A DNA stretch of 64,000 bases, from the NCBI GenBank assembly GCA_035489575.1, contig DATHJY010000013.1:283346-347345 (forward strand). Reading direction: 5' to 3'. Both the position numbers and the translations under genes were made by a program. Each line of letters starts with the position of its first letter. Position 1 is the first letter of the stretch. The notes under the pieces are model-generated. The model was not told where the DNA came from, made no database searches, and saw only the letters and a list, made by a program, of their open reading frames with translations. Below are positions 11,924 through 63,413 of the stretch, in pieces. The DNA is from Verrucomicrobiia bacterium (GTDB taxonomy: Bacteria; Patescibacteriota; Saccharimonadia; Saccharimonadales; JAGQNK01).

Positions 11924-14812
11924 TTACGCTTGACGTGATAGCCTGATGACCAGCTCACTATCATTTATCTTGTTTGATGCTTCGTAGTCTCCGCTACCTT
12001 CTTTGGTTAGATGATTCGCCAGCGTTTCGGCCTTGATAGTATCGGTATGCTCATGAATAGCTTTCTCAAGTTCTTCGTCTTTCGTAGCCAGCACCAACGC
12101 AATTCTATCGTCCACATTCAGACCTGCTGCCTTACGCGCACTCTGCACATTGCGTACCACCTCGCGCATGAGGCCTTCACGCTTAAGAGTTGGCGTCATC
12201 TGCAAGTCCAATATGACCGTTACGTCATTTGTTTTATTGCACTCAATCTCCTTAACATTCAGTTCTTCCTTAATGATAGCCTCGTAGTCCTCGAGGTTAT
12301 CCATGAAATAGGCTGGCGCACTGCCAAAGGAGACTTTAGCCAAAGGCTGTCTGACTTTTATGCCCTCCTTAGCTCGCACAGAAAGACCAGTATTGATAAC
12401 TTCGCGGGTAAACCGCATGTTATCAACTACAACCTCGTTAACATGCCCTACCTCTGGCCAGTCCGCTAAGTGCACCGATTCACCACCCGTAAGCTTCTGG
12501 TACAACTCTTCGGCAAGGAAAGGTGTGAAAGGAGCCATGACATGCGCCAGCTGCATCAGAACGTAATGGAGGGTTTTGTATGCATCGTTCTTGTCGTCAC
12601 TGTCGCCGCTCTTCCAGAAGCGTCGACGAGAGCGACGAACATACCAGTTAGAGGCGTCTTCGATGAAAGGCAGAATCGGCTTCGTGGCGTTCGGGAGGTC
12701 ATACTTATCCATATGCTGTTCAACTTCATGAATCAGCTGGTGCAGCCGAGATACAATCCATTGATCCAGTGGATTCTTGAGGTCGCTCGCCGGGTCTTGG
12801 CACGTGCCGTCCCACTCCCAGCCATCAACCTCGGCATACATAGTAAAGAAGTCATACATATTCCAAACCATACTCAGTTTGCGTGCCGTATCAGCCACTT
12901 CCTTATCCGTTAGCGCGAAGTCCTCAGCGTTAAGTATTGGCGAGCTAAGTAGTAAAAATCTCAACGAATCCGCACTATATGTATCCATCAGTACGTTGGG
13001 GTCAGTATAGTTTCCAAAGCTCTTACTCATCTTTCGACCATCGTTACCGGCAAGCGTACCCGTGACGATCACATTCTTGAAAGAGTTCTTGCCAAACAAC
13101 CCCACACTCACTGCATGAAGGTAGTAAAACCAGGCCCGAACCTGACCCACATACTCTACGATATAATCTCCGGGGAAATTTTGTTCAAACTTCTCTTGGT
13201 TCTCGAATGGGTAGTGGAACTGCGCAAAGGGCATAGATCCGCTCTCGAACCAACAGTCCAACACCTTATCTATGCGTTTGTATTCAACGCCGTCCAGCCT
13301 GAAGGTCACGTCATCAACCCATGGTCGGTGATAGTCTTCAAGCTCTATCCCTGATAGGTCTTTGAGCTCTTGATAGCTTCCGACCACCTTGATGTGTTCT
13401 TTGCCATCCTTGTCCGTGCCTTTCCAGACCGGCATAGCCGTAGCCCAAAAGCGGTCACGGCTCAGGTTCCAGTCCGGAGCACTCTGAACAGTTTTTGCGA
13501 AGCGTCCGTTCTTGATATGTCCCGGGAACCAATTAATATCCCCATTCTGCTCAAGCATCCCTTCGCGCTGACCATTGATATCCATAAACCAACTTGGGTG
13601 CGCCCGGTACATCAGTCTGTTATGGCAGCGGTGGCAGTGAGGATAGCTATGGGTGACATATTCTATTTTCCACACCATGCCTCGAGCATGGAGTTCTTTA
13701 GCAATTGGCTTGTTCACTTCCCAGATATTTTCACCCTGCCACTCACCATCAACGTACAGGCCGTTATCATCAACGTTATTCACAAAGGGAAATCCCTTCT
13801 CCTTTGCCAGGTGATAATCTTCTTCACCAAACGCGGGTGCCAGGTGAACAATACCCGTGCCCTCTTTGAGTGATACATAGTCTGCATGCCAGACCCGATG
13901 AGCCTTGTCGCCACGATCTTCAAAAAGTGGCTCATAAGACTTGCCAACCAAGTCCTTGCCCTTGAGGGTACGTAGTAACTTATACGACAATACTTGATGT
14001 TTCTCATCTGTTAGGACTTTGCCTAGCAGATCCTTGGCGAGGATCAGTTTCTGACCGTCCACCTCGATTTCGGCGTATAGCTCTTCTTGATTAACGGCAA
14101 CAGCCGTATTGGCCGGCAGAGTCCAAGGGGTAGTTGTCCAGGCTAGCAAGGACGTACCCTCATCTTTCAGTTTGAACTTTACAAAGACCGAAGGATCAGT
14201 CACGTCCTGATAGCTATTGTCCATAGCAACCTCAGCCTTAGAGATAGGCGTAGCATCGCGCGTACAGTAAAGCAGTACCTTTTCTCCTTCATAGATCTTA
14301 CCGGCGTCATACAGCTCCTTAAAAGCCCACCAGACTGATTCCATGTAGTCTTTATCCATGGTTTTGTAGGCACCCCTGAAGTCTACCCAGCGACCAACGC
14401 GATCAATAGTGTCCTCCCAGAGGTTGCCAGTCTGAACCATGTTTGCCCGACAGGTAGTGATGTACTCTTCCAGACTCACCTTTGTACCGATGTCTCGCTT
14501 GTCTTTGATACCAAGTTTTTTCTCAGTAAAGACTTCTGCCGGTAGGCCATGGCAATCCCAACCCCAAACACGCTCCACTCGTTTGCCTTTCATCGTCCAG
14601 TAGCGTGGCACTGCGTCTTTGGCGATAGAGCTCAGGAGCGTTCCATGGTGTGGTTCTCCGGTGATAAAGGGAGGACCATCGTAGAACACATACGAGTTTT
14701 CTTTTGGTCGGTTTTCTACCGACTTCTCAAAGGTCTTATGTTCTTTCCAGTATTTGACGAGATCTTTTTCGTACTCGAGTGGCTTGCGTCTGGTGCCTTG
14801 TTTAAACTTCAT
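11924..14812 (-). CDS. ileS: Isoleucine--tRNA ligase (type 2-like, 962 aa)
   Basis: FYDGPPFITGEPHHGT (HIGH-type motif), GWDCHGLPAE and KMSKSFGNY (KMSKS). The upstream leader displays an AUC specifier. Confidence 0.85.
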   Translation of the reverse strand: MKFKQGTRRKPLEYEKDLVKYWKEHKTFEKSVENRPKENSYVFYDGPPFITGEPHHGTLLSSIAKDAVPRYWTMKGKRVERVWGWDCHGLPAEVFTEKKLGIKDKRDIGTKVSLEEYITTCRANMVQTGNLWEDTIDRVGRWVDFRGAYKTMDKDYMESVWWAFKELYDAGKIYEGEKVLLYCTRDATPISKAEVAMDNSYQDVTDPSVFVKFKLKDEGTSLLAWTTTPWTLPANTAVAVNQEELYAEIEVDGQKLILAKDLLGKVLTDEKHQVLSYKLLRTLKGKDLVGKSYEPLFEDRGDKAHRVWHADYVSLKEGTGIVHLAPAFGEEDYHLAKEKGFPFVNNVDDNGLYVDGEWQGENIWEVNKPIAKELHARGMVWKIEYVTHSYPHCHRCHNRLMYRAHPSWFMDINGQREGMLEQNGDINWFPGHIKNGRFAKTVQSAPDWNLSRDRFWATAMPVWKGTDKDGKEHIKVVGSYQELKDLSGIELEDYHRPWVDDVTFRLDGVEYKRIDKVLDCWFESGSMPFAQFHYPFENQEKFEQNFPGDYIVEYVGQVRAWFYYLHAVSVGLFGKNSFKNVIVTGTLAGNDGRKMSKSFGNYTDPNVLMDTYSADSLRFLLLSSPILNAEDFALTDKEVADTARKLSMVWNMYDFFTMYAEVDGWEWDGTCQDPASDLKNPLDQWIVSRLHQLIHEVEQHMDKYDLPNATKPILPFIEDASNWYVRRSRRRFWKSGDSDDKNDAYKTLHYVLMQLAHVMAPFTPFLAEELYQKLTGGESVHLADWPEVGHVNEVVVDNMRFTREVINTGLSVRAKEGIKVRQPLAKVSFGSAPAYFMDNLEDYEAIIKEELNVKEIECNKTNDVTVILDLQMTPTLKREGLMREVVRNVQSARKAAGLNVDDRIALVLATKDEELEKAIHEHTDTIKAETLANHLTKEGSGDYEASNKINDSELVIRLSRQA

Positions 14813-15056
14813 GATATTTGCTCCTTAGATATAAAAAATCATCTCTCTTGAATATCAGAACCCCTTTAGGGGTGGTACCATCTGATTTCCAAAAGAGATG
14901 ACTCTTTTAGCACTTACTTATCGCTGTTACGGGCTGCCCGACAGGTTCTACTTATTCCGAGCCCATTGAAGGATTTGCTCAAAACTTTCTTCCCGTAGCT
15001 CGTGGTTGATAGCCACTTTTCTAGCTGTGCTAGATCGCCTTTTCCAAATTGTTACA
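14813..15056 (-). promoter_or_regulatory. T-box leader (Ile specifier AUC) of ileS
   Basis: In the RNA sense: AAUCAGA-UGGUACC-ACCCC-uaaa-GGGGU-UCUGAU, a textbook antiterminator with the 7-nt T-box bulge at 14873-14880. A U-run follows. The GUGG-CUAUCAA-CCAC hairpin (15002-15016) shows AUC+A at 15008-15010. The -10 TACAAT is at 15063-15068. Confidence 0.65.
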
Positions 15057-33504: not shown

Positions 33505-33973
33505 CCAAATATATCACTCATGATAAGCCATGAATGTAAGATATATCACAGATGATATATTGTAACGATGTCCATGCAGTTGGGCACGGATAGATTATTA
33601 AAGGCAAACAGTGGTGAGTGGTCTCACCAATAACTAGTCAATGTACTTCCCTATGATCATTTCTGATAAAATTATCAGATTTGATCATAGGTCGTAAAAA
33701 GTCAATGGGACTATTAGTACGCTTCGGCTCAATACGTTACCGCACTTTCACCTTGCGCCTATCAAACTGATCGTCTTTCAGTGTCCTCATAGGGAAATCT
33801 TATCTTGGGATCAGTTTCGCGCTTAATATGCTTTCAGCGCTTATCTGCTCCGCACATAGCTACCCAACCATGCCATTGGTATGACAATTGGTACACCAGC
33901 GGTGCGTTCACCCCGGTCCTCTCGTACTAGGGGCAAATTCCCTCAAATTTCCTATCGTCCACAGCGGATATAA

Positions 33974-34007
<34 letters not shown>

Positions 34008-34125
34008 ACGTACCTCTTTAACCGGCGAACAGCCGGACCCTTGGAAGGTGCTCCCCCTCCAGGATGAGATGAGCCGACATCGAGGTGCCAAACAGCGCCG
34101 TCTATGTGAACTATTGGGCGCTATA

Positions 34126-34157
<32 letters not shown>

Positions 34158-34517
34158 GTGCGTCGTCGATCCCACTTTCATATAACCGAAGTTAAATACG
34201 ACGGGTCACTAGCTCCTACTTTCGTATCTGTTTGGCCTGTATGCCTCACAGTCAAGCTGGCTTATGCGCTTGCACTATCACTTCGATTTCCATCCGAAGT
34301 TAGCCAACCTTTGAACGCCTCCGCTACTCTTTAGGAGGCAACCGCCCCAGTTAAACTACCCATCAGACACTGTCCCCAAACCGGATAACGGTTGAGGTAA
34401 GAACACAAATACAATAAGGGTGGTATTTCACCGGTGACTCCACCAAAGCTAGCGCCTTGGTTTCAAAGTCTCCCACCTATGCTACACATATTGCACCTAT
34501 GCCCAATGTCAAACTGT

Positions 34518-34549
<32 letters not shown>

Positions 34550-34844
34550 GCGGACAGACGGCATCTTTACCGTCAATGCACTTTCACCGAGCTCTTCGTT
34601 GAGACAGTGCCCACATCATTACTCCATTCGTGCGGGTCAGAACTTACCTGACAAGGAATTTCGCTACCTTAGGACGGTTATAGTTACCGCCGCCGTTCAC
34701 TGGGGCTTCAGTTCGCACCGTGAAGCGCTCCCCTTAACCTTCCAGCACCGGGCAGGAGTCAGCCCCTATACATCCACTTTCGTGTTAGCAGAGACCTGTG
34801 TTTTTGGTAAACAGTTGCGTGGGCTCCTTAGCTGCGGCCTAGAT

Positions 34845-34995
34845 ATGCCGCAGTGGTTCCAATTGCACTAAAGTACTGTACTCCGAAGAGTACATACCCT
34901 AGTATGATGTCACTTATCTCAATCTTGAGTCGTATCGTAAAAGCCACCGAAGTGGCTATTGTTACTCTATGTTCATCTTAGAAACACTGCGGCAT
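34845..34995 (-). other. 23S rRNA expansion (~150 nt) in the variable helix-63 region
   Basis: It is closed by the perfect 11-bp inverted repeat ATGCCGCAGTG / CACTGCGGCAT. Inside are two UUCG-capped hairpins (CCACuucgGUGG and GUACUCuucgGAGUAC). E. coli has ~75 nt between the flanking conserved blocks; this gene has ~200. Confidence 0.6.
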
Positions 34996-35493
34996 ACCCA
35001 GGCAGACCTTATCCCGAAGTTACGGTCGCTGTATTGCCGAGTTCCTTAACGAAGAATCACTCGTACGCCTTGGTCTTCTCGACCTGAGCACCTGTGTCGG
35101 TTTGCGGTACGGATAGCCATACACATAAGTTATCAAGCTTTTCTAGTCACCACTCTCGCAAGAATCAGCCAATAAAGGCCTCTCATTCGCAGTTGTTACG
35201 CTGCTTAGACGGATATAACCATGAATCCGCTCCTACTAACATGATGCGCACTGATAACAATGTATGACTAGTACGGGAATATTAACCCGTTGTCCATCGC
35301 CTACGCTACGCGCCTCGGCTTAGGACCGACTAACCCTGGGACGATTACCGTGGCCCAGGAAACCTTGCTCTTTCGGCGGGCAGGATTCTCACCTGCCTTG
35401 TGGTTACTCATTCCAGCATTCTCACTTCATACCGCTCCACCGGACCTCACAGTCCGACTTCGATGCAATATGAACGCTCCTCTACCGCTCATG

Positions 35494-35628
35494 CATAGCA
35501 TAAGCAGATCCATGCTTCTGATTTCCGCCATCAGAAAGTCTTTTAGCTCCCTGTCCCTTGGTCAAAATTTCTTTTGGCCGGTGGACCGTTGAGCTCTTAA
35601 GACTGTCGTTGAATCTGCTTATGCTATA
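35494..35628 (-). other. IVS-like insertion (~135 nt) at the tip of 23S helix 45
   Basis: It lies between the conserved blocks CACCGAAG and GGUAGAGGAGCGUUC. It is closed by a perfect 15-bp stem, ATAGCATAAGCAGAT / ATCTGCTTATGCTAT. E. coli has ~28 nt at this position. Confidence 0.65.
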
Positions 35629-36502
35629 CACAAGCCCATATCTTCGGTGCTATGCTTGAGCCCCGTTACATTTTCCGCGCAAGATCTCTTGACGAGTGAG
35701 CTGTTACGCACTCTTTAAATGAATGGCTGCTTCTAAGCCAACATCCTCGTTGTTTAAGAAATCTCACCTCGTTTCCCACTTAGCATAGACTTGGGGACCT
35801 TAGATGATGGTCTGGGCTGTTTCCCTTTCGAGCGCCGAGCTTAGCCCCGACGTTCTAACTGCTGTAGTTCCACTGATAGTATTCGTAGTTTATCAAGGGT
35901 GGGTACCCTTGCGGGCCCCAGTCCGAAACAGAGCTCTACCCCTATCAGCTACCGTACAACGCTAGCCCTAAAGCTATTTCGAGGAGAACCAGCTATCTCC
36001 AAGTTCGATTGGCATTTCACCGCTAACCACAGGTCATCCGGGGGTTTTGCAACACCCTACGGTTCGGTCCTCCACGCAGTTTTACCTGCGCTTCAACCTG
36101 CCCATGGTTAGGTCACTTGGTTTCGGGTCTACTAAACAGTACTATGGTCGGCCTATTCAGCCTCGCTTTCACTACGCGTCCGCCAGATGGCTTACGCTTG
36201 CACTGCTTAAGTAACTCGCTGGATCGTTCTACAAAAAGCACGCCGTCACCCCGAAGGGCTCCGACTCCTTGTACGCACACAAATTCAGGTTCTATTTCAC
36301 TCCCCTTCCGGGGTTCTTTTAACCTTTCCCTCACGGTACTTGTTCTCTATCGATCATAAGATATATTTAGCCTTGGGACGTGGTCGTCCCAGCTTCAGTC
36401 AAGGTTTCACGTGTCCCGACCTACTCGACAAAACAAATATAAGGTTAGCGAAACTTGGCATACCAGGCTTTCACTGTCTATGGCCAGTCTTTCCAGACTA
36501 TT

Positions 36503-36675
36503 CTGCTCGCATCGCTAATTTCTTACCTTATGCAGGTTGGTGATAGCACCTGCTTCCAAAACGGAATTCTAGACTAGGTCTAGTGCTCCGTCTTGGTTGT
36601 TTGTAATGTCACAACCCCTTTTAGATATTCGTCTATCAACTTATCCGTCTGAATTAACAGACAGAAACCTAAAAA
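36503..36675 (-). other. 23S rRNA domain I insertion (~140 nt extra)
   Basis: It lies between GCGAGCGAA..GCCCAAAC and AGUCUGGAAAGACUGGCC. E. coli has ~30 nt there; this gene has ~175. Local hairpins include GGTTGT..ACAACC and CTAGAC..GTCTAG. Confidence 0.5.
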
Positions 36676-37605
36676 GTTTGGGCTCTTGCGGATTCGCTCG
36701 CCACTACTACCGCAATCGTTGTTTACTTTCTATTCCTCGAGGTACTAAGATGTTTCAGTTCCCCCGGTTCCCTTCAACAAGCCTATATATTCAGCTTGAG
36801 ATGACTAGGCATGACCCCAGCCGGATTTCTCCATTCGGACATCTTCGGTTCATAGCTTAGTAAGCAGCTCCCCGAAGCTTTTCGCAGCTTCTCACGTCCT
36901 TCATCGGTATCTTATGTCAAGGCATCCCTTGTGTGCGCTTGAGTAACTTTTTACGATTTCATCCGTTGGGCAAAGCCCAATGAATGATTAGTGCCTGCGG
37001 GACAAAGTCCTGCAGACTCTAAAAGTACAATTGACTAGTTATTGGTATTACCAATAACCTAGTGCAGTTTTACTGCACTAGTATGAAATGTGATAACTGC
37101 TTATGCAGCTTTAAACATTTCATGCCGTTTGCCTTTAATCTCAAAATTTGAATCTAATTGTTAAGATACGACTCAAGACGGCCCACAAAACTATCTTGTT
37201 TCTTAGCACTGTAACTTGAGTTTACGCTAAAAGCTTGGCGGTTTATTACGAGTGCCTCGTGCCTAAACTCAAGCAGCCCAAGCATTTTAGCACTAATAAC
37301 AGAGGCGGTCAACCCTCTGGTGCTGTAAAAGAAGCTACAGTTTATACTCTGTTCTCATCAGTTGTGACGATCTAGGGCTTAACCGACACCGTAGCGAATA
37401 GTAGCTAAAAGGCCCACCTCTATCATTAGCACCCCGTATTGCTAGAGTATGACCCTAGCCGTCAATACAATCCCACTAGACATAGCTTATAGATGCCCTA
37501 CCAATGGCAGGTCATAATAGATACAGTTAAACTATCTCTATGCGTCAAAAACTGTGTATGGTCTTTTGCAAAGAAAAGAGGCGTCTAGTAGACGCCTCTT
37601 TTCTT

Positions 37606-37692: not shown

Positions 37693-37769
37693 TGGTGGGG
37701 CTGAGAGGACTCGAACCTCTGACCTCGTCATTATCAGTGACGCGCTCTAACCAGCTGAGCTACAGCCCC
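37693..37769 (-). tRNA. tRNA-Ile (GAU), CCA encoded
   Basis: The reverse complement is GGGGCTGTAGCTCAGCTGGTTAGAGCGCGTCACTGATAATGACGAGGTCAGAGGTTCGAGTCCTCTCAGCCCCACCA. The discriminator base is A73. Confidence 0.95.
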
Positions 37770-61113: not shown

Positions 61114-62958
61114 CTATAGTGAAGTCTTGTTTACTCGAGACTTAGCTTCGTTGGCAACTGTCTTGAGGAATTCCTCGATACCGAGAGCTTGGTGCGGTTT
61201 CTGCACTTCCATGTCTGATCGAACCCGAGGGATCACCTGGCCGGTGTCTATCTCTTTTTCACCAACAACAATAGTGTATGGAACCTTCATAAGCTCGGCA
61301 TTACGAATTTTTTTACCTACAGACTCATTGTCATTGTCCAAGTGTATTCGCAGCCCATAGTCCCGTGCCTGCTGCTTCACCTTCTCGGCAAAAGCCACTG
61401 TAGCATCTTCTTGGTTCACGGTTATCAACCGTACCTGTTCAGGGGCCAACCATACAGGAAATTTGCCAGCCGTATGCTCTATGTACACAGAGAAAAAGCG
61501 GTCGAAGCTACCCATGATTGCACAGTGAATCATGATGGGCTGTTGCTTTTCACCCTTCTCGTTGATATAAGTCAGCTCAAAGCGGTCGGGCTGCACAAAA
61601 TCAAACTGTACTGTGGCAACCTGCAAGACTCGCCCTATGGCGTCTTGTGCCATGAAATCGAGCTTGGGACCGTAGAACGCCGCCTCTCCTTCTTCGGCAT
61701 AGTAGTCGAGATTATTTCGTGCAGCAATCTCTGTCAGCTTTTTCTGACCAAAGTCCCAGAGTTCTTGGGAACCAAGATATGACTCGCTATCGTCCCTAAA
61801 TGAGAGCCGAAGTTTGAGCGACATATCTACAGCAGCGTAGAATTCTTGTACCTTTTCTATAAGCTGGTCAAAGATTTCGTCTACTTGATCAGGTCGGCAA
61901 TAGGTATGGCTATCATCTTGGGTCAATGACCTAACTCGAGACAGCCCATGTAATTCCCCCGTCTTCTCATCACGGTAGTTAGTGGTTGTCTCCATAAGCT
62001 TAACGGGAAGGTCCCGATAACTCCGGGAGCGGGCAGCATATATCTGGGTGTGGTGGGGGCAGTTCATAGGTTTCATGACAAGCTCGTCCGACGTTTCTTG
62101 GCTTTTGACTAAGAATAATTCATCGCCAAATTTTGCCCAGTGTCCCGACTTTTCGTAAAGCTCTTTTTTGGTAATGTGTGGTGACCAAACCCGCTCAAAC
62201 CCCAACTGCTCTCGTACTTCTTCAGAAAAACCGATAAGACCATTACGAATGGTCGTGCCCCGAGGGGTATAGAGGGGCAGTCCGCTCCCGACCAGATCGG
62301 AGAAGATAAACAGGTCCAGCTCCTGTCCGAGTTTGCGGTGGTCGCGCTTTTTGGCCTCTTCGAGCATGTCCAGGTGCTTTCGAAGATCCTTCTCTGTTGC
62401 GAAGGCTACGCCATAGAGGCGCTGCATCTGTGGATTTTTCTCGTTGCCACGCCAGTAAGCACCCGCTACACGCATAAGCTTGAACGCGCCCACCTTGCTC
62501 GTTGATTCGACGTGAGGACCCCGACATAAGTCAGTAAAGTCCCCATTCTTATAAAAGGACACTTTGTCCAGTGCCGCGTCCCCTTCCGCAAGGGTTCCGA
62601 GCTCTTCGGCATTGAGATCTTTGGCTACGGTTGTGCCGGCTCGTTTGAGGTCATTCAACAGCTCTTCTTTATATGGCTGGTTGCTCTCCTTGGCCCAAGA
62701 GATGGCATCATCTATGGGCTTCTCGAAACGTTCAAAAGGCTGATTCTCGGAGATGATCTTGCGCATTTCTGTCTCAATGCGCTCGAAATCTTCCTCTGAT
62801 ACCTTGGTATCGCCGAGGTCTATATCGTAATAAAAGCCGCTCTCTACTGCGGGACCCACTCCGAACTTTGCCGTAGGCCACAGGTGTTGGACTGCAGTAG
62901 CGGTGATATGCGCCAGACTGTGTCTTATTGCATATAGTTGGTCGTTTTGTTGGCTCAT
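61114..62958 (-). CDS. thrS: Threonine--tRNA ligase (no N-terminal TGS domain)
   Basis: 614 aa. It starts at the editing-domain motif IRHSLAHITATAVQHLWP and has class II core motifs (FRDE-like region, GSFDRF). The upstream leader displays an ACC specifier. Confidence 0.9.
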   Translation of the reverse strand: MSQQNDQLYAIRHSLAHITATAVQHLWPTAKFGVGPAVESGFYYDIDLGDTKVSEEDFERIETEMRKIISENQPFERFEKPIDDAISWAKESNQPYKEELLNDLKRAGTTVAKDLNAEELGTLAEGDAALDKVSFYKNGDFTDLCRGPHVESTSKVGAFKLMRVAGAYWRGNEKNPQMQRLYGVAFATEKDLRKHLDMLEEAKKRDHRKLGQELDLFIFSDLVGSGLPLYTPRGTTIRNGLIGFSEEVREQLGFERVWSPHITKKELYEKSGHWAKFGDELFLVKSQETSDELVMKPMNCPHHTQIYAARSRSYRDLPVKLMETTTNYRDEKTGELHGLSRVRSLTQDDSHTYCRPDQVDEIFDQLIEKVQEFYAAVDMSLKLRLSFRDDSESYLGSQELWDFGQKKLTEIAARNNLDYYAEEGEAAFYGPKLDFMAQDAIGRVLQVATVQFDFVQPDRFELTYINEKGEKQQPIMIHCAIMGSFDRFFSVYIEHTAGKFPVWLAPEQVRLITVNQEDATVAFAEKVKQQARDYGLRIHLDNDNESVGKKIRNAELMKVPYTIVVGEKEIDTGQVIPRVRSDMEVQKPHQALGIEEFLKTVANEAKSRVNKTSL

Positions 62959-63151
62959 AGCCGCTCCTTGGTTTAGAGAAATAAAAAGCGCGCCTAGAGA
63001 TTAAAACTCTCTGATAGCGCGTCTCGGTCCCAGATTACGGGAGGTTCCACCTCGACTTTTGCTCTTGCGACATTGGTTATCGTACCTCTGTTGCCACTCC
63101 TACGAAGCTCGGTGGTTGGTGAGGCCACTTCAACACTTAAGCCTTATTATA
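62959..63151 (-). promoter_or_regulatory. T-box leader (Thr specifier ACC) of thrS, with promoter and terminator
   Basis: In the RNA sense: GUCGAGG-UGGAACC-UCCC-guaaucu-GGGA-CCGAGAC is the antiterminator (bulge at 63043-63051). An overlapping terminator GACGCGC..AGAGA..UCUCU..GGCGCGC + UUUUU lies at 62983-63025. The GUGG-CCUCACCAA-CCAC hairpin shows ACC+A at 63118-63120. The -10 TATAAT is at 63146-63151. Confidence 0.7.
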
Positions 63152-63413
63152 CACCCCTGTTATAAAAAGAAAAAGTGATTGAACGCTCTCGCAACTGCAT
63201 TCAATCACTTTCTTTTCTGGTCAAAACCTCTCGGCAAAACTTCGCCTACAAAGATCATACCATACTGGTATGATCCGGCTAGCCTTTTTATGCTGTTTTT
63301 CTTACATCTCCACATGGGGATAACTCAACCGAGCCGATATCATATTTGATATACAAAATAAGCCCTCCTCGTACAAAATGCCAACCAGAACCTATGTATG
63401 CTACAATTATATT

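Follow-up and report, generated by a model that had tools for sequence, protein, structure and literature searches.

A T-box of reduced architecture upstream of thrS in Saccharibacteria, a probable tRNA-Thr-sensing transcription attenuator

Our analysis of a 64,000-nucleotide (nt) stretch of contig DATHJY010000013.1, here called the window in its whole length, concerned the 193 nt located 5′ of the threonyl-tRNA synthetase (ThrRS) gene thrS. This gene, the open reading frame (ORF) 61114-62958 on the minus strand, matches TIGR00418 with 617.6 bits and lies directly 3′ of the leader, and the best matches of its product all came from metagenome-assembled genomes of Saccharibacteria (TM7, Patescibacteria/candidate phyla radiation, CPR). 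A preliminary description had proposed that the leader is a T-box with an ACC specifier and a UGGA bulge, and this proposal is confirmed by the identity of thrS, by conservation among relatives and by covariation. The leader contains the expected helices, a specifier codon that matches the gene, a bulge that matches the tRNA discriminator base and a terminator that overlaps the antiterminator. It is therefore very probably a tRNA-Thr-sensing T-box transcription attenuator that controls thrS with a reduced architecture. The coordinates of all parts are collected in Table 1.

The 80 thrS loci taken from one-genome-per-species Saccharibacteria assemblies gave, together with the window, a set of 81 leaders, and the T-box core was present in 59 of them, with an additional copy farther upstream in one (L023). 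The specifier triplet is ACC in 58 of the 59 leaders and ACG in one, and the bulge reads UGGAACC in 57 and UGGAACA in two. The sole leader with ACG (L056) has an unchanged loop register, and its triplet would read tRNA-Thr(CGU). A covariance model based on 25 relatives, without the window, aligned end to end with positions 63020-63135(-) at 109.8 bits (E=4.9e-22) and gave no second match within 64 kb. Compensatory changes were found in all helices, namely the helix of the kink-turn (K-turn), the specifier stem, both helices of a pseudoknot and the antiterminator helices A1 and A2. The element is not a product of chance and lies far beyond it. In about 1.76 Mb of Saccharibacteria DNA, no T-boxes for amino acids other than those of thrS and ileS were found.

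In Stem I, a K-turn and a 4-bp stem lead to a 9-nt specifier loop, and since nothing lies above this loop, the specifier is apical. In the basal helix AAGU/GCUU, 95.4% of the alignment cells of 49 leaders are paired and 4/4 pairs show compensatory changes (0/500 shuffles), with the variants GAGC/GCUC, GAAC/GUUC, GAAU/AUUC, CUGC/GCAG and GUGU/GCAC. The G and A on the 5′ side of the K-turn are invariant in 49-50 leaders; on the 3′ side the A is invariant and the flanking G residues are nearly so. This geometry agrees with the Rfam T-box model RF00230, which in the relative L009 aligned the equivalent bases to the canonical Stem I base and K-turn, so that the basal helix is predicted to lie three nt 5′ of the invariant G-A. 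The hairpin GUGG-CCUCACCAA-CCAC, which had been described as presenting ACC followed by A, is present at 63128-63112 and its stem covaries (98.5% of cells paired, 4/4 pairs compensatory, 0/500 shuffles). The ACC occupies 63120-63118 and is followed by the purine A63117, and the loop of the family reads NNYM-ACC-RN. In contrast, the proposed Stem I base GUUG...CAAC did not hold. Both sequences are present; however, the helix is not conserved, with 61% of cells paired and all four pairs formed in 3/18 leaders. The true base is AAGU/GCUU, and CAAC sits in a pseudoknot helix, S2.

The region between Stem I and the antiterminator contains this pseudoknot. RNAalifold, applied to an unfitted MAFFT alignment, paired a conserved CGU that follows GAGCUY with a conserved ACG downstream (helix S1), and S2 straddles S1, which results in an H-type pseudoknot. 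Per-sequence shuffle tests are uninformative for a pseudoknot helix of 4-6 bp, and positional covariation was used. All three S1 pairs are compensatory (3/3, 0/500 shuffles) with the ACG nearly invariant, and the same positions pair elsewhere via unrelated sequences (ACGUCC/GGACGU, CUUGC/GCAAG, GAUACC/GGUAUU, UUACAUC/GAUGUAA and CUUUU/AAAAG). Taken jointly, S1 and S2 have 8/8 compensatory pairs and 90% of cells paired (0/500 shuffles). As RF00230 places S1 of L009 on Stem IIA and the UAA tail behind it on the F-box, the pseudoknot corresponds to the Stem IIA/B element; at about 39 nt, it is larger than the canonical 21-nt version. The purine-rich flanks of S2, AGGAGU and AAGAG(Y), could form S-turn-like non-canonical pairs. 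A single long nested "Stem II" hairpin had also been considered for this middle region and was superseded by the RNAalifold pseudoknot. The preliminary description had overlooked both the IIA/B-type pseudoknot and the absence of Stem II and Stem III.

Stem III is a stable hairpin flanked by G...GAA in 26/59 leaders, and these hairpins fit the published context RRRxG-Stem III-AA (PMC7583486). The window belongs to the remaining leaders but retains the purine flanks RAGNG...AA of the Stem III site.

All the antiterminator parts that had been quoted, including the 7-nt bulge UGGAACC, as well as the terminator and the Shine-Dalgarno (SD) sequence are present on the minus strand. In A1 and A2 together, 97.3% of cells are paired and 7/9 pairs are compensatory (0/500 shuffles), with the caveat that pairing itself guided the choice of register for the three basal pairs of A1. 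The A1 helix occurs in three geometries in the family, that of the window having a tandem G.A in the middle of the helix, and the bulge is invariant in the 59 leaders save for its last base. The labels "textbook" and "canonical" do not apply, given the silence of RF00230 at E<=10, the tandem G.A in A1, the U-A pair that closes A2 and an overlap of only 5 nt with the terminator. As a separate observation, a G.U pair closes A2 in 15 of the 26 leaders that have Stem III, as against 1 of the 33 that lack it (U-A in 19, G-C in 13), a comparison in which relatedness was not controlled; the G.U pair and Stem III, which both belong to the sensing module, seem to have changed in concert.

A terminator, defined as a hairpin followed by a U-run, is present in 53/59 leaders. 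In 38 of these 53, it overlaps the 3′ strand of A1 by 5 nt, as the minimum free energy (MFE) fold starts at the third base of that strand (GAGAC). The GAGAC segment pairs with the last bases of the stem and the first U residues of the U-run, and because the overlap is limited to 5 nt of A1, the switch acts on the base of the terminator and not on the entire hairpin. In the window, the folding energy of the antiterminator is -9.7 kcal/mol, and the terminator has an MFE of -16.8/-17.3 kcal/mol, which drops to -13.3/-13.5 kcal/mol without the 3′ strand of A1. Terminator competition in the window is on the weak side of the family range. The claimed overlap of antiterminator and terminator thus stands in the shared strand GAGAC, but it involves only 5 nt of A1 and about 3.3-4 kcal/mol. 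The terminator had been placed 25 nt before the SD; the U-run in fact ends 13 nt from the SD, and the distance of about 25 nt is that to the start codon.

The codon and discriminator matches were further examined in the leaders of the isoleucyl-tRNA synthetase gene ileS, located in the window at 11924-14812 on the minus strand (TIGR00392, 808 bits). From 80 ileS loci of metagenomes, 77 usable leaders were obtained, and about 50 of the 77 are T-boxes of like design, in which a K-turn and a 4-bp stem carry the 7-nt apical loop CUAUCAA with its AUC. Their bulges read UGGUACC in 48 and UGGC in 2, with UGGA in one further copy. The ileS leader of the window, 5′ of 11924-14812, reads AAGUGG-CUAUCAA-CCAC-GAGCUACG. 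As judged from these sequences, it holds that the loop triplet and the variable base of the bulge both switch with the gene. The leaders of thrS and ileS had been called homologous, and they do share the T-box modules and a short 5′ block; full-length homology is not demonstrable, as the thrS covariance model aligns to the ileS leader of the window in fragments only.

On the tRNA side, the tRNA-Ile(GAU) of the window ends in CAGCCCC-A-CCA, and its A73 matches the UGGU of ileS. On the contig of L081, which encodes an identical ThrRS and comes from the same organism or a near-identical strain, tRNA-Thr(CGU) ends in CUUCGGC-U-CCA, and its U73 matches UGGA. The same U73-CCA end is found in tRNA-Thr(CGU) of six relatives. 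The predicted U73 therefore agrees with the CGU isoacceptor in this organism and in relatives, whereas the GGU isoacceptor was not found in the window, in the 80 thrS loci, in the 80 ileS loci or within 10 kb past the thrS end of the window. Three ileS leaders combine AUC with an odd bulge (UGGC in L110 and L112, UGGA in L102); either the match between bulge and discriminator is strong but not absolute, or tRNA-Ile differs in these genomes. All the tRNA genes that were read (Ile, Thr and Val) encode the 3′ CCA (window 37693-37769; L081 4449-4524; other loci).

The established T-box mechanism (PMC7583486) provides the basis for a model in which the leader would bind tRNA-Thr, discriminate between its charged and uncharged forms and allow read-through. 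Transcription would begin about 7 nt past the TATAAT box, just 5′ of 63138, which puts the putative 5′ end of the RNA at the basal helix of Stem I. The TATAAT box was not called by a simple sigma-70 scan because the -35 region is weak. Stem I would then fold into its K-turn, 4-bp stem and 9-nt apical loop, and the ACC of the loop would pair with the GGU anticodon of tRNA-Thr, while the IIA/B-type pseudoknot and the purine string would link Stem I to the antiterminator. The UGGA in the 7-nt bulge is expected to pair with the free 3′ U73-C-C-A of uncharged tRNA-Thr. This pairing would keep A1 closed, so that the terminator would lose GAGAC for the basal pairs beside the U-run and RNA polymerase would read through into thrS. 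With charged tRNA-Thr, A1 would not be stabilized, the full terminator would form and transcription would stop 25 nt before the start codon.

Several observations weigh against such a T-box. The long Stem I with an AG bulge and a distal loop is absent, and in the L009 alignment 76 positions of RF00230 collapse to 9 nt. Between Stem I and the pseudoknot, no separate Stem II hairpin is seen, and the RF00230 alignment of L009 has a deletion at Stem II. Stem III is absent from the window and from 33/59 leaders, which have 3-15 unstructured purine-rich nt in its place. The pair that closes A2 beside the bulge is U-A in the window, and the canonical G.U is absent. The cost of A1 to the terminator is about 3.3-4 kcal/mol in the window, as compared with a family median of 7.0, and a shortened terminator of 5+5 bp, whose stem stops 2 nt before the U-run, can coexist with A1. 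As tRNA-Thr(GGU) was not recovered, its discriminator is deduced from the CGU isoacceptor. Finally, RF00230 gave no match at E<=10 in a 651-base stretch with the thrS leader.

The last point had been named beforehand as one that would refute a T-box, and the element was therefore tested by comparison across relatives. Searched at its gathering threshold (93 bits), RF00230 gave no T-box match in the whole window, and at E<=0.1 it gave none in eight Stem III-bearing relatives. The model fails on the thrS leader because about 100 of its 219 positions are absent there, and the region is formally rejected. This rejection is not a valid refutation, as those positions are missing and L009, a relative with Stem III, gives a weak full-length alignment (18.7 bits, E=0.03 on 311 nt) onto which the modules could be mapped. 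The ileS leader of the window scores 42 bits with RF00230, against the threshold of 93, and Stem I is deleted in that alignment.

The same losses could mean that the T-box has decayed, that is, that the Stem III-less subclass no longer responds to tRNA and acts as a constitutive partial terminator or as a mere leader. The absence of Stem III, of the Stem II hairpin and of the G.U sensor pair, the competition of about 3.3-4 kcal/mol between A1 and the terminator in the window and the failure of RF00230 on the region would all fit such a relic. However, the 33 Stem III-less leaders, whose ThrRS identity goes down to about 57-60%, keep ACC, UGGAACC, the G-A residues of the K-turn, the pseudoknot and the overlap of A1 with the terminator, and the one change of ACC to ACG in the family still yields a Thr codon. 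Since the tRNA-contacting bases are kept with compensatory changes throughout, they are under purifying selection, which is not expected of a relic, and we consider decay improbable.

Control at the level of translation, as in the short-Stem-I T-boxes of Actinobacteria, would be suggested by the specifier itself, because an apical-loop specifier in a short Stem I has so far been typical of translational T-boxes (PMC7583486). In addition, a few thrS T-box leaders (L046, L047, L061, L069 and L070) have no terminator, and in L069 and L070 a hairpin AUAAUAAC...GUUAUUAU directly after A1 encloses the SD and pairs with the AUG, which suggests a switch to translational control inside the thrS T-box family. 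In the window, however, a GC-rich hairpin and U5 come right after A1, as terminators do in 53/59 leaders, and SD sequestration was not found: the SD lies 13 nt past the U-run and is unpaired with the leader. Translational control of the window's thrS is thus very unlikely. We give hardly any credence to a ThrRS-binding operator, that is, protein autoregulation by tRNA mimicry of the Escherichia coli thrS type, for which a structured hairpin 5′ of thrS with a loop tied to Thr decoding would speak, as the loop shows the codon ACC and not an anticodon-like GGU or CGU, a like design with AUC lies 5′ of ileS, the conserved UGGA complements the 3′ end of tRNA and would be needless in a synthetase operator, and a terminator takes the place of an SD-adjacent operator, with the hairpin about 150 nt 5′ of the SD. 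A leader-peptide attenuator was rejected as well, the sole short ORF of the leader (AUG 63074) having no Thr codons and an AUG that is not conserved in relatives.

Compared with the canonical transcriptional T-boxes of Firmicutes (RF00230; Bacillus subtilis tyrS, thrS and glyQS), the leader of the window shares the position before an aminoacyl-tRNA synthetase gene, the K-turn and a specifier followed by a purine. It also shares the IIA/B pseudoknot with an F-box-like ACG(A)UAAC, the purine string before A1, the 7-nt UGGNACC with N matching the discriminator, and an A1/A2 antiterminator opposed to an intrinsic terminator. It differs in showing no separate Stem II hairpin and having no Stem III, in the U-A pair that closes A2 and in lying below any reportable RF00230 threshold. 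Furthermore, its terminator takes 5 nt of the A1 3′ strand, whereas the canonical one uses about 12 nt, made up of the 3′ strands of both A1 and A2 (PMC7583486). The glyQS T-boxes likewise lack the Stem II hairpin naturally; they have no IIA/B pseudoknot either but keep Stem III and a long, elbow-contacting Stem I, whereas the window retains the pseudoknot and has lost the other two.

A short Stem I with an apical specifier has already been described in Actinobacteria, in ileS T-boxes that regulate translation and rely on the Stem II domain (PMC7583486). Like the window leader, these elements, known from Mycobacterium tuberculosis and Nocardia farcinica (PDB 6UFG and 6UFM, cited in PMC7583486), have a short or "ultrashort" Stem I without an elbow-binding platform, an apical specifier, a K-turn and a IIA/B pseudoknot. 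However, they are translational (SD sequestration), ileS specific and dependent on the Stem II S-turn, and they contain Stem III, while the window leader has an intrinsic terminator, serves thrS, shows no separate Stem II hairpin and has no Stem III. According to the literature, transcriptional T-boxes generally require a long Stem I, and Stem III is indispensable (PMC7583486); the distal platform of Stem I, the Stem II S-turn hairpin, Stem III and the A2 G.U are described as required or universal (PMC7583486, PMC11404447). The class I entries of the T-box database TBDB derive from RF00230 matches, and its short-Stem-I model was run on Actinobacteria only (PMC7778990), so it would not contain Saccharibacteria leaders. 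A full-text search, of incomplete coverage and hence no proof of novelty, returned no paper on a T-box in Saccharibacteria, TM7, Patescibacteria or CPR. In the leader of the window, a short Stem I and the absence of the Stem II hairpin and of Stem III go together with an intrinsic terminator.

T-boxes are a model for how an RNA recognizes which tRNA it faces and whether that tRNA is charged. Structural models deem three parts essential, namely the elbow platform of Stem I for co-transcriptional sensing, the Stem II S-turn where Stem I is short, and Stem III for sensing of the tRNA 3′ end. The Saccharibacteria family keeps the codon-anticodon and UGGN-NCCA contacts, the K-turn and the pseudoknot under clear selection, appears to drop these three parts and keeps the terminator. 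We find it equally easy to accept and to doubt the broader proposition that Saccharibacteria carry uncatalogued minimal transcription-terminating T-boxes, of which the Stem III-less subclass (33/59) would sense aminoacylation without Stem III and without the G.U, using S2 (flanked by AGGAG...AA) as a platform beside A1. If true, this natural T-box, whose core measures about 117 nt, would run counter to the published statements that Stem III is universal and indispensable and that a transcriptional T-box requires a long Stem I. If functional, it would define a smaller functional T-box core and a compact scaffold for engineering, and amino-acid-responsive riboregulation would exist in reduced CPR genomes. 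Rfam-based surveys, and TBDB built on them, under-count T-boxes outside Firmicutes and Actinobacteria.

Table 1. Parts of the thrS leader and their positions in the window
Feature	Positions	Strand	Basis or remark
-10-like box TATAAT	63146..63151	minus	Sequence; TAnAnT equally spaced in relatives
Stem I basal helix (K-turn C helix), 5′ strand AAGU	63135..63138	minus	Pairs with GCUU 63108-63105
K-turn, 5′ side: 3-nt bulge GUU, G-A of the tandem G.A, A opposite C63111	63129..63134	minus	
Specifier hairpin GUGG-CCUCACCAA-CCAC, 9-nt apical loop	63112..63128	minus	Covariation
K-turn, 3′ side (C, G-A), and basal helix 3′ strand GCUU	63105..63111	minus	
Pseudoknot helix S1 (Stem IIA equivalent), 5′ strand (U)CGUA	63101..63105	minus	RNAalifold, covariation
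Pseudoknot helix S2 (Stem IIB equivalent), 5′ strand GGCAAC, includes CAAC	63090..63095	minus	
S1 3′ strand UACGA and A-rich F-box-like tail UAAC	63076..63084	minus	
S2 3′ strand GUCGC	63067..63071	minus	Pairs with GGCAAC
Purine string AAGAGCAAAA, 10 nt between S2 and A1	63057..63066	minus	No hairpin
Antiterminator GUCGAGG-UGGAACC-UCCCG-UAAUC-UGGGA-CCGAGAC	63021..63056	minus	A1 GUCGAGG 63056-63050 with CCGAGAC 63027-63021; bulge UGGAACC 63049-63043; A2 UCCC(G) 63042-63038 with (U)GGGA 63032-63028
Intrinsic terminator GAG-A-CGCGCU ... AGAGA-GUUUUAA-UCUCU ... GGCGCG-CUU, then U-run	62983..63025	minus	GC-rich hairpin 63025-62986 with one bulged A; U5 62987-62983
SD AAGGAG (62969-62964) and ATG (62958-62956) of thrS	62956..62969	minus	Sequence; unsequestered

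The ileS T-box of the window (14835-15030, minus strand) and those of the ileS loci (L083-L162) have a different terminator. Here CAAGAGAGAUGA, the strand just 5′ of the U-run, forms pairs with UCAUCUCUUUUG, which comprises the loop of Stem III and its 3′ half. The antiterminator thus lies entirely inside the ileS terminator, whose competitor is Stem III and not A1/A2. This enclosing topology was found in 40/40 ileS leaders with a detectable terminator, as compared with 3/46 thrS leaders, and it covaries in ileS (e.g., AUCACCU/GGGUGAU and GUCGUUACUUUUGG/CAAAAGCAACGAC). No terminator that competes with Stem III was met in the T-box literature covered, in which no search was aimed at it.

The loop motif UUGCGAGA(G) is common in the hairpins of intrinsic terminators of these genomes, with examples in the window at 63193, 51243 and 37847 (minus strand) and at many other loci. 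In 1.76 Mb, there are 23 cases of a UUGCGAGA(G) hairpin followed by a U-run, including many thrS T-box terminators of relatives; the UUGCGAGA heptamer is not over-represented overall (181 observed versus about 214 expected).

Upstream of the leader, a conserved motif A(C/A)(A/U)GGGGUG lies directly 5′ of the -10-like box of thrS in the window (63152-63160) and in relatives, in some of which it is preceded by TTGCAA, and it may be a lineage-specific promoter feature. Just 5′ of the thrS promoter, there is also a conserved element resembling a small RNA (about 63160-63345, minus strand), which reads ACAGCAUAAAAAGGCUAGCC ... GGCGAAGUUUUGCCGAGAGGUUUUGACC and then forms a strong hairpin with a U-run (63217-63166). 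It had no Rfam match. Its counterparts lie 5′ of thrS in L004, L006, L010, L014 and L027, and a promoter-like site is located near it at 63384-63355.

Large insertions in 23S rRNA are frequent in CPR bacteria. The 23S rRNA gene of the window (33693-36953, minus strand) spans 3261 nt, compared with a model of 2925 positions, and contains insertions of about 38 and 75 nt near its 5′ end, around 36640-36520. Past the other end of the window, opposite the thrS end, the called genes of the contig encode large surface-type proteins.

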